From IMG/VR virus record IMGVR_UViG_3300028841_000327: DNA of 40,443 nt, one strand, 5' to 3'. A model generated the notes under the pieces. It was not told where the DNA came from. It searched no databases and saw only the letters and a program-made list of their open reading frames with translations. This DNA is from a virus. A program made the translations under genes and the position numbers. Each line of letters starts with the position of its first letter. The first letter of the stretch is position 1. Shown piece after piece: positions 10,518-40,360 of this stretch.

Positions 10518-13500
10518 TCAGCCCGTGAGCCTCACGCTCGAGTCCTTCGTCGCGCCGAGCCTTTTCGGACGCGAGGCGCCACCTTCGAGCGCCTCGTTGT
10601 CCGTGAGCATGGCGTAGAGCTGCTTGCCGATGGAGAGGCCGACGAGGTAGCTGTCCTCGGCGACCCCGGCGGCTTGGAGGGCGGACTCGGGGTCGAGGCC
10701 GTCCGTCGCGACCGAGACGGCGACCTTCCGCATGAGGAGGTCGAGCGCCTGGGTCTGGATGGTGTTCGCGTACTTGGGGACGTAGATGGACGTCGGCTTG
10801 GTCTGCCCGATGCGGTCGACCCGGCCGATGGCCTGGCGGAACGTCAGCGGGTTGCACGCCGGGTTCTGCATCCACACCTCGGTCGAGAAGTGGACCAGGT
10901 TGTTGAGCCCCGTCTGCACCGTCACCGGGTTGGCCACGAGCACCCGCGACTTCTTGGCGATGACCTCCTTGTTGATCCAGTCCTGCCGCTTGGCGGTCGA
11001 GACCTTGTCGGCGTGGAGGATGGGGACCCGCTCGCCGATGCGTTCGGCGATGATCCGCGCGAGCCGGGGCATCAGCTTGGTGTGCCAGCCGAAGACCAGC
11101 ACGTTGCGCCCCGCCTCGAGCTCGGCCTCCACGAGGTCGAGCATCCACTGCTCCTTCGGCAGGATTGTGTTCGCGGGCAGCAGGGGCACCGAGGCCACGA
11201 TCCCACCGTCCTTCACGGTCGGCGGGTACTCGATGGCGAACTGGTCGCCGTGGTCGTTGCCGACGTCGATGGTCGCCCGATCGAGGTAGGAGGGCAGCTC
11301 GGCCAGCTGCCCCCACAGCTTGCCCGCCAAGTCCTTCTTGAAGCGGTCGGAGCGGATCTGGGCGAGCAGCTTGTTGCGCAGCGCCTGGTAGTGCTGGAAC
11401 AGTTCCCCCTCCGCCTTGAGGTCGACGTTGCGCTGCTCGCACTTGGGCAGCTCGATCGAGAGGTCGGACTTGTGGAGGGTGACCGACATGGGGAGCAGGT
11501 GGGTCATGAGGAAGAGCGGCAGCACCCCGGGGGCGTTGCCGAGGATCCGGTGGTTGCGCTCGACGCGGTCGGTCACGGAGCCGAAGGCGATGATCTCCCC
11601 GTCCTGCTTCTCCTCGACGAGGCGCTTGCGGAAGCCGTAGCGCTCGACGAACAGCGACCGGTGCTCCCGGAGGAACTCCCCACGGAAGCGGCGGCTGATG
11701 GCCCAGAAGTTGGAGAACAAGCTCTCGGCGTAGCCGTTCATGATGGTGCCGGTCATCAGGATGGTCGGCAGCCCCATGTTGGTCAGGCGGTGGGCCGAGC
11801 GCTCTTGGGCGCTCCCGTCGGTCGCGTACTCGTGCCCCTCGTCGACGATGAGGAAGTCGAAGAGCTTGCGGTGACGGCGGGAGATGAGCCGGGCGAGCGG
11901 CAGGCGGACGGGGTCGGCGACGCCCTGGTAGAGCGGCTCGTCGCAGACCGGGGAGTGCTTGAAGCGCGCGAGGGTGCAGGCGGCACGGAACGCCCGGAGC
12001 GCCATGGCTGCGGTGCCGGGGGCGTCGTCCTCGATCTTGGTCACCCCGCCCCGGTGCGAGGGGCTGAGGGTGAACGACCAGTCGGGCAGCTTGTTGCCCT
12101 TGTCGACCTCGGCGAGGTGGTCGCGGAGCTTCGCGACGGGGTTGCCGTAGCTGTCGTACCAGCGGCCGGCCATCTGGACCCTCTTCTCGGCGACCAGCTT
12201 CTCGAAGACCACGAGCGCTTGGTCGCGCTCGGCCCCCGGGGGGAGCAGCAGCAGGCACTGGGCGGCGGGGCCCGTGTCCATGCCGTACTCCTTGAGCCCG
12301 AGGTGGTGGATGGTCTCGACGATCAGCCGAGGGTTGGCGAGCGCGAGGAGCGACAGGCAGAGGGCCCGCACCGCCTTCTTCGTCACCTCGGGGATCGTGG
12401 ACTCCACCTCGTTGCGCAGGAGCCGGGTGCACTCGAAGATGATGTGGTGGAAGGGGCTGGACCGGTCGGCGACGATCGGCAGGCCCGACCAGCCCGTGGG
12501 CACGGTCCAAGCGGGCTTGCGCTTCCGCTTCTCGTTGCGCATCAGGTAGGCGTCGCCCCGGGTCTGGGCCATGCGGCCGTCGAGCAGCGCCGCGACGTTG
12601 GGATCCGCCGGGTAGTGGGGCTGCAACCGGATCGCGAGCTCCACGACCGACTCGGCGAGCCGGTCCTTGGGGTGCCGCGTCTGCGCCTTGCAGCGGGCCC
12701 GCGTCTTGGCGAAGTCGCCCCCGTGGAGGGGAGCCCCGCACTTGGGGCACCCGCTGCCCTGGACACCCACGTAGGCGTGCCCGAGCTTGGCGGCCTCACG
12801 GGAGAGCAGGCCGACCACGGGGCGCTCCGGGGCGGCCTTGACGGCCTTGGCGAGGCGCTCGAGGTCGAGCACGTCTCGGAGGACGTGGACGTCGACATCG
12901 GGGGCGATGGCCTCGAACTGTTCCTGCCACGAGGCGAGGAGGTGCGGGGGGCAGAGGATGAGGAGCCGCTTGGCGCCGAGGCTCCGGGCGGCGACGACCG
13001 ACACGGTGCTCTTGCCCGATCCGATCTCGCCGAGCAGGATGGCGGCCCGGTCGGGCTGTGCGAGCAGGCGCACGAGGGCGCGGGCGGCGTGGGCCTGGGC
13101 GGCGAAGAGCTTGCGGGGGGAGGGGTGGAGGGTGACGGCGTTCGCGTGGTAGCGCGGGTCGTAGAGCACCGGGCACTGCTGCTCCATGACGCGCATCAGC
13201 GAGGTCGAGTAGTGGGACAGGAGGTCGGCCGCGGTCATCTCGCAGACGGCGACCTTGCCCGGGGTGATGTCGGTGCCGGCCTTGAGGGTGTGGTAGGCGT
13301 AGGTCGAGAGGTCGAGGACGGTGGTGACCATCTTCGGCTGCTGCACCTGCACCTCGCCGACGACCTCGCCGTCCCTGTTGACCTTCTCCTCGATGGTCCG
13401 GTATTCGCGGTCGAAGACACCCTTGACCAAGAGCGGGGGGAGGTGGGAGCCCGGGTTGGGCTCGACGCGCGCCCCGTTGAAGATCCCGGAGGCCATCCCG

Positions 13501-14396
13501 GCCGCGATGTGGGCGGGGCGGGGCGGCACGGCGACGGGATAGACCCGGCGCATGAGGTCGACGGGGGCGACGCTCGGGACGAAGGCCTCGAGATCCTGGG
13601 CGGCCCCGGCCTTGTTGGTGATCGACCAGGGGCGGAGCTTGGCGAGGAGCGCCTTGGTGTCGACGTGGTCGATCTCGAGGTCAGAACTCCTGCTGTAGAG
13701 CGAGGACGGGCTCAAGGCAGGGACCGCGGTGCGCGTGCGGCACGCATCGCCGAGGACGGGAAGGGAAGCGGGGTCCAACGCCCAGGTCCGCACGAGGAGG
13801 GCGACCGAGCTGTCGGGCGCGAGCGGCTCGTCGACGACGCGCTTGGCGACGAGGACGACCTGACGGTAGGCCTTGAAGTCGTCGTCCGGGAACCGAAAGC
13901 ACCGGAGGTCGGTGTAGCTGCGGGCGAGGGTCTCGGCCGAGGCGGCGAGCGCGTAGTGGGGGACGACGAAGACGAGGACGCCGCCGCTGGCGAGCGAGTC
14001 GGTGAAGCGGGCGAGGAACCGTTCCTCGAGCCGCTCGTGCTCCCGGTCGAGGTCGTAGGGCGGGTTCAGGTACAGGAGCGAGGCGAAGGGCTTGGTCCAG
14101 CGGGCGCGGAAGGCGTCGGCGTGGTGCGCGTTGCCCACGGTGCGCGTGAGTGCGGTGAAGCGCGACTCCTCCATCTCGATGGCGACCCACTTGGGGGCCT
14201 TGGCGCCGAGGCGCTTGGTGAGCTCGACGAGGGCGGCGCCGTCCCCGGCGCACGGGTCGAACGCCACGACGCGGGGGCGAGAGTAGTTCTCGGCCTCCCG
14301 TTCCTCGGGCGGCACGAGCAGCTGCGCGATGAGGGGGATCAGGTGCGGCGGCGTCGGGTAGTACCCGGCGACGGCGACGCTCTCGAGACGAGCCAT
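10518..14396 (-). CDS. Amino (N6A/N4C) DNA methyltransferase (DUF6094-like) fused to SF2 SNF2/DEAH-type helicase (1292 aa)
   Basis: MTase: AGYYPTP, FDPCAGDG, LYLNPPYD; helicase: GEIGSGKS, ILCPPHL, LIVDEGHE, MTGT, TGLNNL, QAIGRVDRIGQ; GAAAGG RBS. Confidence 0.85.
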   Translation of the reverse strand: MARLESVAVAGYYPTPPHLIPLIAQLLVPPEEREAENYSRPRVVAFDPCAGDGAALVELTKRLGAKAPKWVAIEMEESRFTALTRTVGNAHHADAFRARWTKPFASLLYLNPPYDLDREHERLEERFLARFTDSLASGGVLVFVVPHYALAASAETLARSYTDLRCFRFPDDDFKAYRQVVLVAKRVVDEPLAPDSSVALLVRTWALDPASLPVLGDACRTRTAVPALSPSSLYSRSSDLEIDHVDTKALLAKLRPWSITNKAGAAQDLEAFVPSVAPVDLMRRVYPVAVPPRPAHIAAGMASGIFNGARVEPNPGSHLPPLLVKGVFDREYRTIEEKVNRDGEVVGEVQVQQPKMVTTVLDLSTYAYHTLKAGTDITPGKVAVCEMTAADLLSHYSTSLMRVMEQQCPVLYDPRYHANAVTLHPSPRKLFAAQAHAARALVRLLAQPDRAAILLGEIGSGKSTVSVVAARSLGAKRLLILCPPHLLASWQEQFEAIAPDVDVHVLRDVLDLERLAKAVKAAPERPVVGLLSREAAKLGHAYVGVQGSGCPKCGAPLHGGDFAKTRARCKAQTRHPKDRLAESVVELAIRLQPHYPADPNVAALLDGRMAQTRGDAYLMRNEKRKRKPAWTVPTGWSGLPIVADRSSPFHHIIFECTRLLRNEVESTIPEVTKKAVRALCLSLLALANPRLIVETIHHLGLKEYGMDTGPAAQCLLLLPPGAERDQALVVFEKLVAEKRVQMAGRWYDSYGNPVAKLRDHLAEVDKGNKLPDWSFTLSPSHRGGVTKIEDDAPGTAAMALRAFRAACTLARFKHSPVCDEPLYQGVADPVRLPLARLISRRHRKLFDFLIVDEGHEYATDGSAQERSAHRLTNMGLPTILMTGTIMNGYAESLFSNFWAISRRFRGEFLREHRSLFVERYGFRKRLVEEKQDGEIIAFGSVTDRVERNHRILGNAPGVLPLFLMTHLLPMSVTLHKSDLSIELPKCEQRNVDLKAEGELFQHYQALRNKLLAQIRSDRFKKDLAGKLWGQLAELPSYLDRATIDVGNDHGDQFAIEYPPTVKDGGIVASVPLLPANTILPKEQWMLDLVEAELEAGRNVLVFGWHTKLMPRLARIIAERIGERVPILHADKVSTAKRQDWINKEVIAKKSRVLVANPVTVQTGLNNLVHFSTEVWMQNPACNPLTFRQAIGRVDRIGQTKPTSIYVPKYANTIQTQALDLLMRKVAVSVATDGLDPESALQAAGVAEDSYLVGLSIGKQLYAMLTDNEALEGGASRPKRLGATKDSSVRLTG

Positions 14397-36037: not shown

Positions 36038-36435
36038 CGGAAGGCCCTTCCTGCCGCGCTCCGCGCGCGGCGCTTGCCCTTGGGCGCTTCGCGCACCGGG
36101 GGCGATGGGGTCGGCTGCGTCGCGTCGTACGCGAGGGTGGCCGACATGTAGAGGTAGCCGTAGGAGCGCCGCGGGCTGTACCGCAGCCGATAGAGGTCGC
36201 CCTCGATCGAGTAGGTGTTGCTGTCCGACGGATCGGGCAGGTTCGCGCGGAGCAGTGGCAGGGCCTTGCTGTTCAGCCAGGCCGCCATGGACTCGCGTTC
36301 CGCTTGGGAGGCTTCGCCCTCGACGCCGCTCCGGTCCAACAGGATGTCGAGGGAGCCGTCCCGAAGGATGGCGCGCGCCGACCAGTGGAACCGAGGGTCG
36401 CCCTCGGGTTCGAGCCCCCAACCCTTGGGAGGCAT
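36034..36435 (-). CDS. Hypothetical protein (133 aa)
   Basis: TGATG coupling; SP..SYGYLY motif. Confidence 0.6.
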   Translation of the reverse strand: MPPKGWGLEPEGDPRFHWSARAILRDGSLDILLDRSGVEGEASQAERESMAAWLNSKALPLLRANLPDPSDSNTYSIEGDLYRLRYSPRRSYGYLYMSATLAYDATQPTPSPPVREAPKGKRRARSAAGRAFR

Positions 36436-36638
36436 CAGTAGCCCCCGCGCTCGTCACGATCGGCGCAGCGGTCGCACTGGTAGCCGCGCGCCTTGTCGGC
36501 GGGCGTCAGGCGGTTCGGCGCCTTGCACGTGGGGCACGGGAGGTTGCGAGGGTTGGACCTCGACGCCGCCCGGAGAGCCGAGTGTCCCCTGGGGTCCGCG
36601 AATTCGAGATCCCCGCCGTCATCGTCATCGTAGTACAT
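36435..36638 (-). CDS. Small Zn-ribbon protein (67 aa)
   Basis: PRNLPCPTC..PNRLTPAD..RGYQCD.CAD; preceded by element. Confidence 0.7.
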   Translation of the reverse strand: MYYDDDDGGDLEFADPRGHSALRAASRSNPRNLPCPTCKAPNRLTPADKARGYQCDRCADRDERGGY

Positions 36639-36737
36639 GGCTTCCTTTCAGCGAGCCGAATGCCCGCGCCTCGACCCCGGAACCGGATGGTGTCCAGGGT
36701 CGAGGTGCGAGGGCGAACCGTTGGCCACCGGTTCGCC
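36639..36737 (-). promoter_or_regulatory. Full A-B-C intergenic structural element
   Basis: A GGCGAACCG..CGGTTCGCC; B CTCGCACCTCGACCCTGGA..TCCGGGGTCGAGGCGCGGG; C GCGGGC-ATTCG-GCTCGC then TGAAAGG. Confidence 0.75.
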
Positions 36738-36751
36738 TCGGAACGAAAACG

Positions 36752-36850
36752 TCAGTGCCCAGCCTTCCCCCCGTTCAAGGGCGCGCGGACTGGCTTCCCT
36801 GGGCACTGGCATGCGGCCGTCAGCCGCGTGTGTCTTCTGCGGTCGAGCAT
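36752..36850 (-). CDS. Possible 32-aa peptide MLDRRRHTRLTAACQCPGKPVRAPLNGGKAGH
   Basis: GGAGGA RBS, but overlaps a perfect 10-bp stem; may be non-coding. Confidence 0.3.
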   Translation of the reverse strand: MLDRRRHTRLTAACQCPGKPVRAPLNGGKAGH

Positions 36851-36873
36851 GAGTCCTCCGCTTGGGTGGTCGG

Positions 36874-37032
36874 TCACTCGATCGAATTGAACGCTTCGCG
36901 CAACTCGCGCCGCGCCTCGTGCCGCTCGCGCCGCCGCTGCGCCGCGCCGTGCCAAGCCAGGCACGGATCCTGATGACGCAGCCGAACCGAACGATCGCGC
37001 CGACGGTGGCGCGGCTTCTCACTGTGGAACAT
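36874..37032 (-). CDS. Small arginine-rich protein (52 aa), candidate RNA-binding factor
   Basis: MFHSEKPRHRRRDRSVRLRHQDPCLAWHGAAQRRRERHEARRELREAFNSIE; preceded by CCGCTGAAAGG SD; below ORF-track cutoff. Confidence 0.55.
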   Translation of the reverse strand: MFHSEKPRHRRRDRSVRLRHQDPCLAWHGAAQRRRERHEARRELREAFNSIE

Positions 37033-37332
37033 GGGTGCCTTTCAGCGGAGCAGTGGAGCCCCGCGTGAGACACCCCGAGACGTTGTCGGCGTCCGGCCGG
37101 ACCCACCGACGGAGCGACTGGAGAACCGTTCGACGGCGAAGGCTTCCTCAGTTTCCACACGTTGGGCTGCTCGTCCCATCGCCCCATGCCGCGGCACGGT
37201 TTGATTGTTGGGAGTCGCCAAGGCCACGATGGGCATGAGGAAGAGGAAACCCCTTCCGTGTCATGAACGGCGCTCGCTTGCGCCCACTACGTCTCAGGAT
37301 GTCTCACGCGAGGGGGAGCGCGAACGCTCCCC
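37033..37332 (-). promoter_or_regulatory. A-B-C element whose 23-bp stem B encloses a 207-nt insert
   Basis: Arms 37290-37312 and 37060-37082 pair completely with three G-U pairs on the minus strand. Confidence 0.75.
37083..37289 (-). ncRNA. Putative structured ncRNA of unknown family (207 nt)
   Basis: Nested helices GAGCG/CGCTC, CCGTTC/GAACGG, GAAGG/CCTTC, CTTCCTCA/TGAGGAAG, CCCATCG/CGATGGG; 3' hairpin; no SD-led ORF. Confidence 0.55.
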
Positions 37333-37339
37333 GCGCGTG

Positions 37340-37528
37340 TCAGCCAGTCTTGGCCGAGGTGTAGATGTTGAGCCCGAGCTTGACGTTCTCGCGGCCGGGG
37401 ATCGAAACCGAACCCTCGGTGCTCGCGACGATCTTGGACTTGCCGGAACTCGACATGCCGAAGTTGCGCGTGAGATCCACACGCACCACCAACACGTCAC
37501 CATCGATCTTCATGTCGACATTCTTCAT
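37340..37528 (-). CDS. Small beta-rich conserved hypothetical protein (62 aa)
   Basis: MKNVDMKIDGDVLVVRVDLTRNFGMSSSGKSKIVASTEG...KLGLNIY; GAGGAG RBS; resembles a widespread uncharacterised family (recollection only). Confidence 0.75.
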   Translation of the reverse strand: MKNVDMKIDGDVLVVRVDLTRNFGMSSSGKSKIVASTEGSVSIPGRENVKLGLNIYTSAKTG

Positions 37529-37623
37529 GGCGTTCTCCTCTCGCGGGGGAAAGGCCCGCGTGAGACACACCGAACCCGTGCGGCTCAGGATGTCTCACGC
37601 GAGGGGGAGCGCGAACGCTCCCC
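37529..37623 (-). promoter_or_regulatory. Full A-B-C intergenic structural element
   Basis: A GGGGAGCG-TTCG-CGCTCCCC; B CTCGCGTGAGACA..TGTCTCACGCGGG; C GCGGG..CCCGC then GAGAGGAG. Confidence 0.75.
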
Positions 37624-37628
37624 ACCCG

Positions 37629-37877
37629 CTACGCCTTGTCGTGCCCCGGGCGGCTCAGGGCGCGATGACGCCGCGCCTCCCGAAGATGGGCCTGTGCGAC
37701 CGCGAGGGAAGCGTCGACGAGGCGACTGTACGCCCTCCCGACGAGACCGTTCGCCCCGGCCGAGCGGCGCAGGTGACGCCGCGCATCCGCCAGAAACCGG
37801 GCCGCCGTGCGCTCCACGCGCGCCGCGTACCCCACACGGTCGACCTTCCGAAGCGACTTCCGCTGTGCTCGTGCCAT
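37629..37877 (-). CDS. Basic Arg/Ala-rich helical protein (82 aa)
   Basis: Preceded by CGCTGAAAGG element and followed immediately by hairpin A. Confidence 0.6.
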   Translation of the reverse strand: MARAQRKSLRKVDRVGYAARVERTAARFLADARRHLRRSAGANGLVGRAYSRLVDASLAVAQAHLREARRHRALSRPGHDKA

Positions 37878-37978
37878 GGTTGCCTTTCAGCGTTGCCCAC
37901 AACGGGCCCCGCGCCACGACCCCGGAACCGACAGGCGGATCCAGGGTCGAGGTGCGAGGGGGAGCGCGAACGCTCCCC
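37878..37978 (-). promoter_or_regulatory. Full A-B-C intergenic structural element
   Basis: A with TTCG loop; B CTCGCACCTCGACCCTGGA..TCCGGGGTCGTGGCGCGGG; C GCCC..GGGC then TGAAAGG. Confidence 0.75.
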
Positions 37979-37982
37979 GCTC

Positions 37983-38324
37983 CTACGTGGACTGCTCGAT
38001 TTCCATCAGGAAGGGCAGTGCCCACCCCGGAGTCGATTGCGCGGTGTAGAACGCATCGGCCTCGACGCGCTTGCCCTCGCGGAGACACCCGGAGACTTCG
38101 TTCGGGGTGCTCTCGTCATACATGGCGACGTCGAGTTCCCCGTTCGACATGATCCGCACCGAGATACACCCCCGCATGTTGGGTCGGCCGATGACGGCCA
38201 GCGTGGTGCTCTCAGCGCGGAGACGCCACCCTCGCCCCATGGGGTCGGTTTCGCGCGTGTGCCCCCCGCCCCATGGGAACGTGCCTTCCCACGACTGCTT
38301 GGCGGAGATCGAAAACTCCATCAT
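37983..38324 (-). CDS. Hypothetical protein (113 aa)
   Basis: Bracketed exactly by two elements. Confidence 0.65.
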   Translation of the reverse strand: MMEFSISAKQSWEGTFPWGGGHTRETDPMGRGWRLRAESTTLAVIGRPNMRGCISVRIMSNGELDVAMYDESTPNEVSGCLREGKRVEADAFYTAQSTPGWALPFLMEIEQST

Positions 38325-38416
38325 GGCTGCCTTTCAGCGGGCCCACCACGGGCCCCGCGCCACGACCCAGGAACGGATCCAGGGTCGAGGTGCGAGGGGG
38401 AGCGCGAACGCTCCCC
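38325..38416 (-). promoter_or_regulatory. Full A-B-C intergenic structural element
   Basis: A with TTCG loop; B CTCGCACCTCGACCCTGGA-TCCGT-TCCTGGGTCGTGGCGCGGG; C GCGGGGCCC..GGGCCCGC then TGAAAGG. Confidence 0.75.
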
Positions 38417-38422
38417 ACCACA

Positions 38423-39265
38423 CTACTTGCGACGCAGCCAGCGCTGGCCCGCGCCGAACGAATCGTCGCGCGCCTTGCCTTCCAAGTTGGCAGGCCGGTT
38501 CGGGGCGAGAACCACCCCGCCGCGACGTTGCACCATGTCCGCACCCGGACGCAGCTTGCCGAACTGCTCGCCATGTTCGTTCGACCACGCGAGGTTCGCG
38601 GCATTCGAGTCCAGCGCCGCTTGCGCAACGTTGTGACGCACCGACTGATACATGATCTCGACATCGCGGAGCGATCCGCCCCGTTCCATCCGAAGCCGCG
38701 CCCGAAGCGCGGTGTCGGGGTCGTGTTCCGCCATGAATTTGAACATGGCGTCGAGACTCACCCCGACCGCTTCGCGCTCCGGCTTCGGCTCCTCGCCGAT
38801 CGGGAGCATGGTCGTGTGATAGACCGGCCGCGTGAGAACGCTTCCGACGGATGCACACGTCTGACCGACGAGAGCCCCGGGCCTGTAGGCCGACGCGCTA
38901 CCGCGCCGACAGACGCCCAGTTGCTGAACGGACACCGCGTAGGCGAGCCGTTCGAGCGGTGTCGCGCCGTGGCCGAGGAGACGGAGCCCGCAACGCGAGC
39001 CGCCCCGCCGACACCCGACGCGGACCGTGGTCCGCACGTAGACTTGCCGCATGACGCCGCCCGGTTTCACCTCGCGATCGGTCGCTTCCGCGACGACCGG
39101 GGTCACCGTGGCCACGACCGCGACCGGGACAGGCGGAGGTTTGACCTCGACCTTCGGCGCCTTGGGCGCCTTGCGCTTGACCGGTTCGACCGGTTCGGGA
39201 GCAGCCGCCACGAGGCTAGGCCTCAGAGCCGCGGACCCCTGCACAATCCTGCGCATTGCACGCAT
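38423..39265 (-). CDS. Hypothetical protein (280 aa), first gene of the minus-strand unit
   Basis: CCGCGAAAGGAAACC-ATG start at 39265; Pro/Val/Lys-rich N-terminus. Confidence 0.55.
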   Translation of the reverse strand: MRAMRRIVQGSAALRPSLVAAAPEPVEPVKRKAPKAPKVEVKPPPVPVAVVATVTPVVAEATDREVKPGGVMRQVYVRTTVRVGCRRGGSRCGLRLLGHGATPLERLAYAVSVQQLGVCRRGSASAYRPGALVGQTCASVGSVLTRPVYHTTMLPIGEEPKPEREAVGVSLDAMFKFMAEHDPDTALRARLRMERGGSLRDVEIMYQSVRHNVAQAALDSNAANLAWSNEHGEQFGKLRPGADMVQRRGGVVLAPNRPANLEGKARDDSFGAGQRWLRRK

Positions 39266-40085
39266 GGTTTCCTTTCGCGGGCCCACCTTGGGCCTCGCAC
39301 CAAAACCCCGGTACTGCGCTTGCAGTCCAGGGCTTTGGCACGAGGGCGAATCTTGCGACTCGCCCCCGCACCAATCGAGGCTCACAACCTCGACAGGCCG
39401 GGGCACGTTACCGTGCAGACATGGGCCTTTGCTTTCGCGTTACCGCCCCCGTAGGGTTCACATACCAGCGACCCGCGACGCTTGCGCATCTAGCAGGCTC
39501 GCCGCTGTGATTTTGCGGCACCCGGGGCTCACAACCCCTTTCCAATCGTCAGGGCACGTCACCGTGCAACATAGACGCTTTCGCGACCGCCTCTTACGAG
39601 CGATTGCCTTGCAGCAACCCTTTGCGGTACCCGGCCTGTTCGACCGTTCCCGGACTCCCGCTAGGCCAGCCGGGGCTCGCAACCCTGACTTCCTAGACGG
39701 ACCGTGCCTGTAGCGCGCCGACCTTTGGCGTTTCCATGCTGCTAACACAAGCGCTCGTTTCCGAGGGGCGCGGGTGAAGCATGGCCCGGAACGATTCCGG
39801 GTGAAGCGTTGCACACCATATGCAACCGGTCGACACGACGTGACGTATGTAGCCTGTACGTAGGCCAGTCGCTATCCGCGTTGTTCGCGTTGTGAGAGGC
39901 CGCGGGGTAATCCCGTGGCATCGCGCCGCTTGCTTCGCTTGCGCACCGTAGAACCGGGCCCCTGTCACGGGGGGCCGAGTCTTCTAGGATGGAACCAAAC
40001 CACCCTAGATGTGCCTGTATTGCCGCCGCATTACCCCTATGGCGGGGGGGAGACGCTTAGTCGGAAACCGACAGTCAACGTCTAC
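39266..40085 (-). ncRNA. Putative ~820-nt structured leader / large ncRNA ending in an A-B-C element
   Basis: Dense hairpins with GNRA (GCAA, GTAA, GTGA, GAAA) and UNCG (TACG) loops and G-U pairs on the minus strand; three repeated units; lower GC; six CTAG in 39490-40092, rare in coding DNA here. Confidence 0.6.
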
Positions 40086-40113
40086 CAACTAGCGTTCCAT
40101 CGGACCAAACCCT

Positions 40114-40208
40114 CAAAGCAGAGCTTCTAACTCTGCAATGCAAAGCCAAAGCAGAGCTTGACAAAGCTCTGCCATGACCAAAGCAGAGTTTCTTGCGAAA
40201 GCAGAGCT
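40114..40208. repeat. Array of (C)AAAGCAGAG boxes, operator- or iteron-like, in the divergent region
   Basis: Direct copies at 40114, 40147, 40179, 40198; inverted CTCTGC at 40131 and 40167; palindrome GCAGAGCTT-GACA-AAGCTCTGC (40151-40172). Confidence 0.75.
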
Positions 40209-40360
40209 ACTGGTCGGGCGGTTAGGTAGTATGCGCGTTCAGGCACACGCTAGCGGAACGCGAGGCGCGCGGCAAGTGTCGAATCGTTCGCGCTCGATCG
40301 TGCGAGTGTCGCGCGGCGCATCGCTCGCACGTGGCGCGCGTGGTCGGCTACCATGTTCGC

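Follow-up and report, generated by a model that had tools for sequence, protein, structure and literature searches.

Early gene row and its intercistronic modules

The window analysed here is a stretch of 40,443 nucleotides from a metagenome contig (JGI 3300028826, 68% GC) in which the credible genes all lie on the minus strand. A Pfam scan of its gene content identified a RepC/HTH-like protein, a DUF6094 methylase-helicase, a C5 methylase, and a ComM-like protein. The DUF6094 protein (10518-14396) is 1292 aa long and combines a methylase with a SNF2-type helicase. Among its full-length relatives the best is encoded in LR745208.1, a 485-kb uncultured phage (41.5% identity over 99%), and weaker, partial relatives occur on conjugative plasmids. 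From about position 39265 a row of small genes runs leftwards, and the spacer between two of these, g4 and g5, contains a conserved non-coding stretch of about 250 bases (37059-37313, hereafter the insert) that is closed by a 25-bp RNA stem. The genes and features of this row are as follows.

39265-38423, minus strand: g1, 280 aa
38324-37983, minus strand: g2, 113 aa
37877-37629, minus strand: g3, 82 aa
37557-37601, minus strand: short "stem B" hairpin ahead of g4, in this lineage only
37528-37340, minus strand: g4 (P0002), 62 aa, upstream of the insert; missing in the lineage of L052, L053, and L021
37313-37332, minus strand: hairpin T (GGGGAGCG-UUCG-CGCUCCCC), directly 3' of the g4 stop codon
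37289-37313, minus strand: 5' arm of the closing stem P1; 25 pairs, 23 of them invariant across three variants
37084-37288, minus strand: conserved non-coding interior of the insert (207 nt, 37083-37289, as delimited in an earlier note on this DNA)
37236-37253, minus strand: CU-rich tract GGGGUUUCCUCUUCCUCA, with two possible registers against GGAAAC-N-GAGGAAG (37143-37156)
37200-37217, minus strand: A/C-rich apical loop, 18 nt, predicted to be unpaired; 3 of the 14 variable columns
37092-37113, minus strand: predicted 3' side hairpin with a UGGGU loop, in a three-way junction with P1; invariant in all variants
37059-37083, minus strand: 3' arm of P1, the proximal half of which is also part of the g5 leader retained in L018
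37033-37058, minus strand: g5 leader, with a small hairpin (GGGGC-UCCACU-GCUCC) and then a GAAAGG Shine-Dalgarno (SD) sequence at 37038-37043; common to the insert-free L018
37032-36874, minus strand: g5, 52 aa, Arg-rich, directly downstream of the insert
36638-36435, minus strand: g6, 67 aa

Judging from its substitution pattern, g5 is a real conserved gene under clear purifying selection in four lineages, since 20 of the 33 distinct substitutions in its 159 nt are synonymous (11.2 expected, P=0.0003). Its product has 14 Arg in 52 aa, including AAQRRRERHEARRE, and no family match in Pfam or PHROG; most gene callers missed the gene. The g4 product is one of a widespread group of related proteins, 58-63 aa in length (MKNVDM...SSSGK...ASTEGN...GLN.Y), for which Pfam has no family. 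Its relatives are encoded on bacterial chromosomes, beside carotenoid and UvrA-like genes, and these chromosomal genes in other contexts gave no anchors for homologs of the insert. No relative of the g1 protein was found in the viral contig collection. The spacer between g5 and g6 (36639-36873) contains a short ORF rich in Arg (MLDRRRHTRL...), accompanied by a strong SD (GGAGGA), and, at about 36760-36815, the sole classical terminator-like hairpin with a U-tract. The related locus L018 retains this hairpin, but neither L014 nor L043 has it. In L052 the spacer is likewise shorter, by about 64 nt.

The small genes are separated by a repeated module, which consists of hairpin T after the stop codon, a middle stem, a small hairpin, and GAAAGG-N5-ATG. 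Four identical copies of hairpin T are present in the window, each just past a stop codon (0.06 expected by chance), and the hairpin is identical in relatives; a scan of the viral contig collection for its pattern matched only unrelated terminator hairpins. The middle stem of the other modules is a 16-bp hairpin, stem A, and in the g4-g5 spacer the long duplex occupies that slot. Copies of stem A were compared at 39290-39350 (ahead of g1) and at 38355-38395, 37915-37960, and 36665-36710. Relative to the other copies, the one upstream of g1 (GUGCCAAAGCCCUGG ... CCGGGGUUUUGGUGC) has several two-sided changes in which pairing is kept, with G·U on the minus strand, suggesting that the middle stems, as a class, are selected as RNA.

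The earlier note had described the interior of the insert as cargo carried in the loop of one stem B. Comparison with relatives reverses this direction. The "stem B family" has two members in the window, and its short form is confined to the window lineage and absent from all relatives, which have the long form only, so the stem belongs to the insert. At the site of stem B, L014 has a stem A, and in L052, L053, and L021, which are without g4, g3 is followed by hairpin T and then directly by the long stem. The short stem B hairpin therefore appears to be a derived copy of the insert's stem, which probably arose by recombination at 43-48-nt repeats (family D2).

Single genes of the row are gained or lost between identical repeats of 43-48 nt (hairpin T plus the first stem arm). 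For example, g2 (37983-38324) is absent in L017 (L017:1816-1924) and swapped for an 88-aa gene in L014 (L014:6855-7330), g4 (37340-37528) is lost in L052, L053, and L021 (L021:300-400), and L052 has an extra mini-cassette past g1 (L052:1190-1260). Repeat exchange of the same kind as that proposed for stem B would explain the loss and swap of g2 and the L052 mini-cassette.

Conservation and coding potential of the insert

Loci of relatives were recovered from other assemblies through protein look-ups, and four lineages carry the insert, in each case at one constant position immediately ahead of g5. The element is represented in assemblies from JGI 3300028826, 3300049436, and 3300048561, from SRR10823751-64, and from ERR1879320. 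Loci L014/L042 (in which the g1 protein is 84% identical) and L043 carry it at the same locus position. The three diverged variants have a star-like relationship with 96.0% to 96.4% pairwise identity (14 of 255 columns are variable), whereas g3, g4, g5, g6, and g7 are 72% to 92% identical, and the flanking genes of the window and L014 are 72% to 89% identical. In L052, L053, and L021 the insert is identical to that of the window over 300 nt, and their genes are 92% (g2), 91% (g6), and 98% (g3 and g5) identical; relative to L052, g5 differs at 3 of 159 positions and g2 at 26 of 342. The insert thus changes several times more slowly than adjacent neutral sites. However, part of this conservation may reflect exchange, since the region is mosaic: the backbones of L014 and L043 are 97% to 98% identical, yet these loci differ by 3.6% in the insert and by 13% in g5.

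In a fifth lineage, L018, g5 is retained with a leader that starts midway along the 3' arm, and the insert is replaced by a 71-aa gene and a different stem of about 13 bp. It follows that g5 does not need the insert in cis. The locus bears on a reading in which the segment is purely a cis-acting 5' leader of g5, the stem and interior controlling g5 translation or stability in the manner of the RNase III-sensitive lambda N leader, with no released RNA that has a job of its own. Such a role would be consistent with the position of the insert, which in each of the four carrier lineages is immediately adjacent to the leader and SD of g5, with the continuity between the P1 3' arm and the leader retained by L018, and with the presence in L018 of another long stem at the same place. 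However, about 205 nt at 96% to 100% conservation exceed the need of a stem-based switch, g5 in L018 works with a quite different upstream segment, and no pairing that would sequester the SD of the g5 ribosome-binding site (RBS) occurs in the minimum-energy or consensus folds. We regard a purely cis-acting leader as doubtful.

Beyond these loci, a blastn search of phage and plasmid collections with the insert gave no match. Exact-pattern scans did not find the insert in the metagenome contig and viral contig collections, nor the stem arm in the viral contig collection, and an 18-mer of the insert had 17 matches in species-genome contigs, all of them attributed to chance. On the evidence of these searches, the insert is known from one narrow group of phage-like elements. 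It was not found in the more distant g6 relatives L044-L050. A different conserved non-coding segment of about 170 nt is located directly upstream of the g6 homolog in several of these (L047:1760-1943, L048:410-592, L049:415-585, and L050:290-469).

These data can also be compared with what would be expected of a mobile or recombining non-coding cassette, a MITE-like passenger in the operon with terminal inverted repeats of 25-33 bp. Inverted repeats do enclose a non-coding core here, neighbouring cassettes vary among relatives, and the insert is missing in L018. However, the insert occurs as a single copy at a constant place in the window and in each related locus, has no target-site duplication at its ends, and is more conserved than the adjacent coding DNA; the phage and plasmid collections gave no match and the contig scans gave chance 18-mers only. 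An origin of this type is therefore very unlikely.

On the minus strand, a 64-aa frame (37042-37236) extends into the insert and is open in all three variants; its ATG is replaced in relatives by TTG, which is still a start codon. Four of its 8 substitutions are synonymous, which would be in keeping with a coding function, but this number is not above chance (2.65 expected, P=0.27). The GC content of the insert is flat over the three codon positions (0.63-0.68; 0.68/0.65/0.66 at positions 1, 2, and 3), while GC3 of the genes is 0.77-0.87. The absence of an SD-led ORF in the insert, as first described, is borne out, the ATG of the frame being 15 nt past the nearest AAGG. Further, the ORF overlaps both the g5 RBS and the P1 arm, none of the gene callers predicted it, and its product has no homolog among 1.84 billion protein representatives and no match in Pfam or PHROG. 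By these measures the insert is non-coding, and it is highly improbable that the segment encodes the 64-aa protein.

Closing duplex and predicted fold of the interior

The 23-bp duplex recognised in the earlier note (37290-37312 with 37060-37082) exists, and RNAalifold extends it to the 25 bp of P1. The P1 arms constitute the longest inverted repeat within 36300-39500 (33-nt arms, 85% Watson-Crick). Bacterial RNase III acts on about 20 bp or more of double-stranded RNA; the precursors of rRNA, the early mRNAs of T7, and the leader of lambda N are all processed by it. With 25 pairs and no bulge on the gene-sense strand, P1 is long enough for such an enzyme (about two turns, at least 20 bp of near-perfect double-stranded RNA). 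On the minus strand the duplex includes three G·U pairs, for which the plus strand has A·C, and at column 243 of the alignment (window position 37076) a G·U is replaced in relatives by A-U, so that the pair is kept. Folded as RNA, the whole element reaches -132.1 kcal/mol on the minus strand (z -5.1 relative to shuffles; z -4.7 in a second estimate) and -115.8 kcal/mol on the plus strand (z -3.6; second estimate z -2.5). The better fold of the minus strand accords with these G·U pairs, in place of which the opposite strand has A·C mismatches.

This folding signal comes from the closing stem. Within it, the nested helices named in the earlier note are all found, and 98.6% of their cells pair over the three variants; letter by letter, the anatomy given there is mostly correct. 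To describe the interior as a structured RNA was nevertheless an overstatement, since the 207 nt alone have z values of -0.91 (minus) and -0.18 (plus) relative to dinucleotide shuffles. With the closing stem held fixed, 18% of interior shuffles fold as well as the natural sequence. Of the outcomes that the earlier note had named as speaking against its reading, folding no better than shuffled controls thus applies to the interior and does not apply to the whole element. The interior has 36 pairs that span at least 80 nt, compared with 16.4 +/- 8.6 in shuffles, a number reached by 1.5% of them; its rod-like topology alone is mildly unusual (P about 0.015).

The RNAalifold consensus is composed of P1, a three-way junction with the 3' hairpin, and a long irregular arm that ends in the 18-nt loop. 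Both the unpaired A/C-rich tract and the 3' hairpin of the earlier description recur in the predicted folds, as this loop and at 37092-37113, respectively. The A/C tract was also considered as a seed and rejected, being the most variable part of the element. Two duplicated tracts, UUCCUC-UUCCUC and AUGGGG-CGAUGGG, are present in the arm and allow alternative registers. The duplicated UUCCUC tract can pair in different registers, which account both for what had been taken for a pseudoknot (GTTTCC/GGAAAC) and for the CTTCCTCA/TGAGGAAG helix; RNAalifold picks a register other than that of the earlier note. In the register of the earlier note, A-U is replaced by U-A at columns 83 and 169 (37236 and 37150); in that of RNAalifold, the 37236/37150 change repairs a U·U mismatch.

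Among the changes, two preserve a pair by turning G·U into A-U, three or four disrupt pairs of the predicted fold, and three are in the apical loop. The covariation analysis yielded one candidate compensatory pair, a count reached by 164 of 500 shuffles, and statistics from three variants are too thin to carry weight. Since the covariation count is not above that of shuffles and some predicted pairs are broken, the fold of the interior is neither supported nor refuted.

As DNA, both strands of the element fold significantly (z -3.4 plus, -4.5 minus), as might be expected of a site that acts at the DNA level, such as a cruciform or single-strand hairpin site, a phage-specific promoter, or a protein-binding or replication site. 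The equal conservation of paired and unpaired parts and the thermodynamically ordinary interior would also fit such a site. However, the three G·U pairs are A·C mismatches on the plus strand, the template that an entering-strand promoter would need, no sigma-70-like boxes, AT-rich tract, or iterons were found inside, and the position in the module is that of an RNA hairpin. A DNA-level function is accordingly improbable.

Proposed processing module and comparison with known systems

Neither a sigma-70-like promoter nor a U-tailed terminator was found inside the insert, and co-transcription with the flanking genes is therefore the simplest assumption. The insert is non-coding, gene-sense, and constrained, and its duplex is long enough for a double-strand-specific RNase; from these properties the excision of a discrete RNA can reasonably be inferred. 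We propose, with a probability of roughly 0.45, that the insert is an enlarged intercistronic processing module, in which the duplex is an RNase III-type site that frees an RNA of about 230 nt as well as the 5' end of g5. Segment 37059-37313 would be a non-coding part of a long early transcript of minus-strand sense in an uncultured phage-like element of high GC content, and the middle-stem slot would hold a 25-bp RNA duplex around about 205 conserved nt instead of the 16-bp stem A. A host double-strand-specific endonuclease of the RNase III type would cut both strands of the duplex. The cut would part the messages of g4 and g5; hairpin T would then protect the former at its 3' end, and the latter would begin with a leader of defined 5' terminus. 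The RNA of about 230 nt would be liberated with a residual terminal stem.

Consistent with a processing module, the credible genes share the minus strand, the intercistronic modules recur, the G·U pairs of P1 are biased towards one strand and one of them changes to A-U in relatives, and the insert is constrained and constant in its position upstream of g5 in four lineages. Arguing against it are the z of -0.9 for the interior, the three or four broken pairs compared with one that is possibly compensatory, the possible mosaic exchange, and the presence of g5 without the insert in L018. If the duplex is cut, the phage operon would make a discrete conserved RNA in the manner of rRNA, beside a small Arg-rich protein, which may provide an entry point to RNA-based host take-over by uncultured huge phages of high-GC bacteria. 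It is distinctly unlikely, as a more specific proposal, that the RNA of about 230 nt represents a new class of phage non-coding RNA that forms a ribonucleoprotein with a lambda-N-like g5 and, soon after infection of a high-GC (possibly myxobacterial) host, reprogrammes the transcription or translation of that host.

The RNase III sites of T7 early genes and the flanking stems of rRNA precursors are well established. As in the gene row described here, the T7 sites are hairpins or duplexes between the cistrons of one long transcript, and they leave a stable hairpin at the 3' end of the upstream message, to which hairpin T is comparable. In rRNA precursors a long duplex of distant flanks encloses and releases a functional RNA, and P1 likewise encloses an RNA. 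In contrast to both systems, the modules of this row are three-part, near-identical repeats, and their cleavage is predicted only. In phage lambda, the Arg-rich N gene is preceded by a leader that contains nutL and a stem sensitive to RNase III. This leader shares with the insert a structured segment of about 200 nt with a long stem, located directly upstream of a small Arg-rich gene in an early operon. The arginine-rich stretch of g5 presumably recalls the arginine-rich motif of lambda N, although it is internal in g5 and N-terminal in lambda N.

Elements of the nut type have been described (PMC2724277), as have the boxA consensus GYTCTTTAANA and the Myxococcus xanthus boxA GCTCTTTGAAA (PMC5725501; bioRxiv 10.64898/2026.07.09.737519). 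A candidate boxA in the A/C tract, ACTCCCAACAA, was rejected: it mismatches GYTCTTTAANA at its G and over the T-run, and in the T-run it also fails to match M. xanthus GCTCTTTGAAA. A relaxed boxA motif was not enriched in the window, and no boxB hairpin with a GNRA-like pentaloop was found among the predicted loops (UGGGU, CGCG, AAGCGA/GAGCGA, and the 18-nt loop). By the published consensus the element lacks a boxA, and none of its loops resembles boxB, so that a nut/N system is a lead rather than a finding.

The comparison with Rfam that the earlier note had proposed assigned the insert to no known RNA family: at E<=10, the four hits that cmscan returned for 36950-37450 were spurious and did not include 6S, and the whole window had no hit at the gathering threshold. 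Two functions suggested in that note, a 6S-like RNA polymerase decoy and an anti-SD small RNA against the g1 RBS, can be considered in this light. The insert resembles 6S RNA (Rfam RF00013) in its length (about 230-250 nt), its long closing stem, and a partly rod-like fold. However, it has a three-way junction instead of the central open-promoter-like bubble with its conserved nucleotides, and its sole large unpaired tract is the 18-nt apical loop. The anti-SD proposal is based on the complementarity of tract GGUUUCCU to AGGAAACC at 39266-39273, but this is a single 8-nt match to one RBS, of which an estimated 0.7 or so would be expected by chance, and GGUUUCCU is located in a paired tract inside the element. 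Neither function has more than a very slight probability.

Other RNAs and repeats share single properties with the insert. The Correia repeat enclosed elements of Neisseria have a non-coding core between long inverted repeats and are co-transcribed with their neighbours, and their repeat hairpin binds RNase III and is cleaved by it (PMC2649163). The insert also has a non-coding core between long inverted repeats; in contrast to Correia elements, which are mobile and dispersed in many copies, it occurs as a single copy in a syntenic position and exceeds its neighbours in conservation. CJnc190 of Campylobacter is a regulatory RNA that results from RNase III cleavage of a longer structured precursor (PMC8687705). 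Small RNAs of this type are stand-alone genes with known targets, whereas the insert is intercistronic and its release is inferred. A retron msr-msd RNA was considered and rejected, as the neighbours are proteins of 62 aa and 52 aa and no reverse transcriptase domain was found among the Pfam-scanned proteins. The insert can be described as a well-delimited conserved non-coding element without a known family, a candidate RNA whose fold is predicted.

Outside the gene row, in the region that separates the leftward operon from a divergent plus-strand gene (40100-40210), AAAGCAGAGC occurs five times, with both orientations represented. From its arrangement, this array looks like an operator or iteron array.
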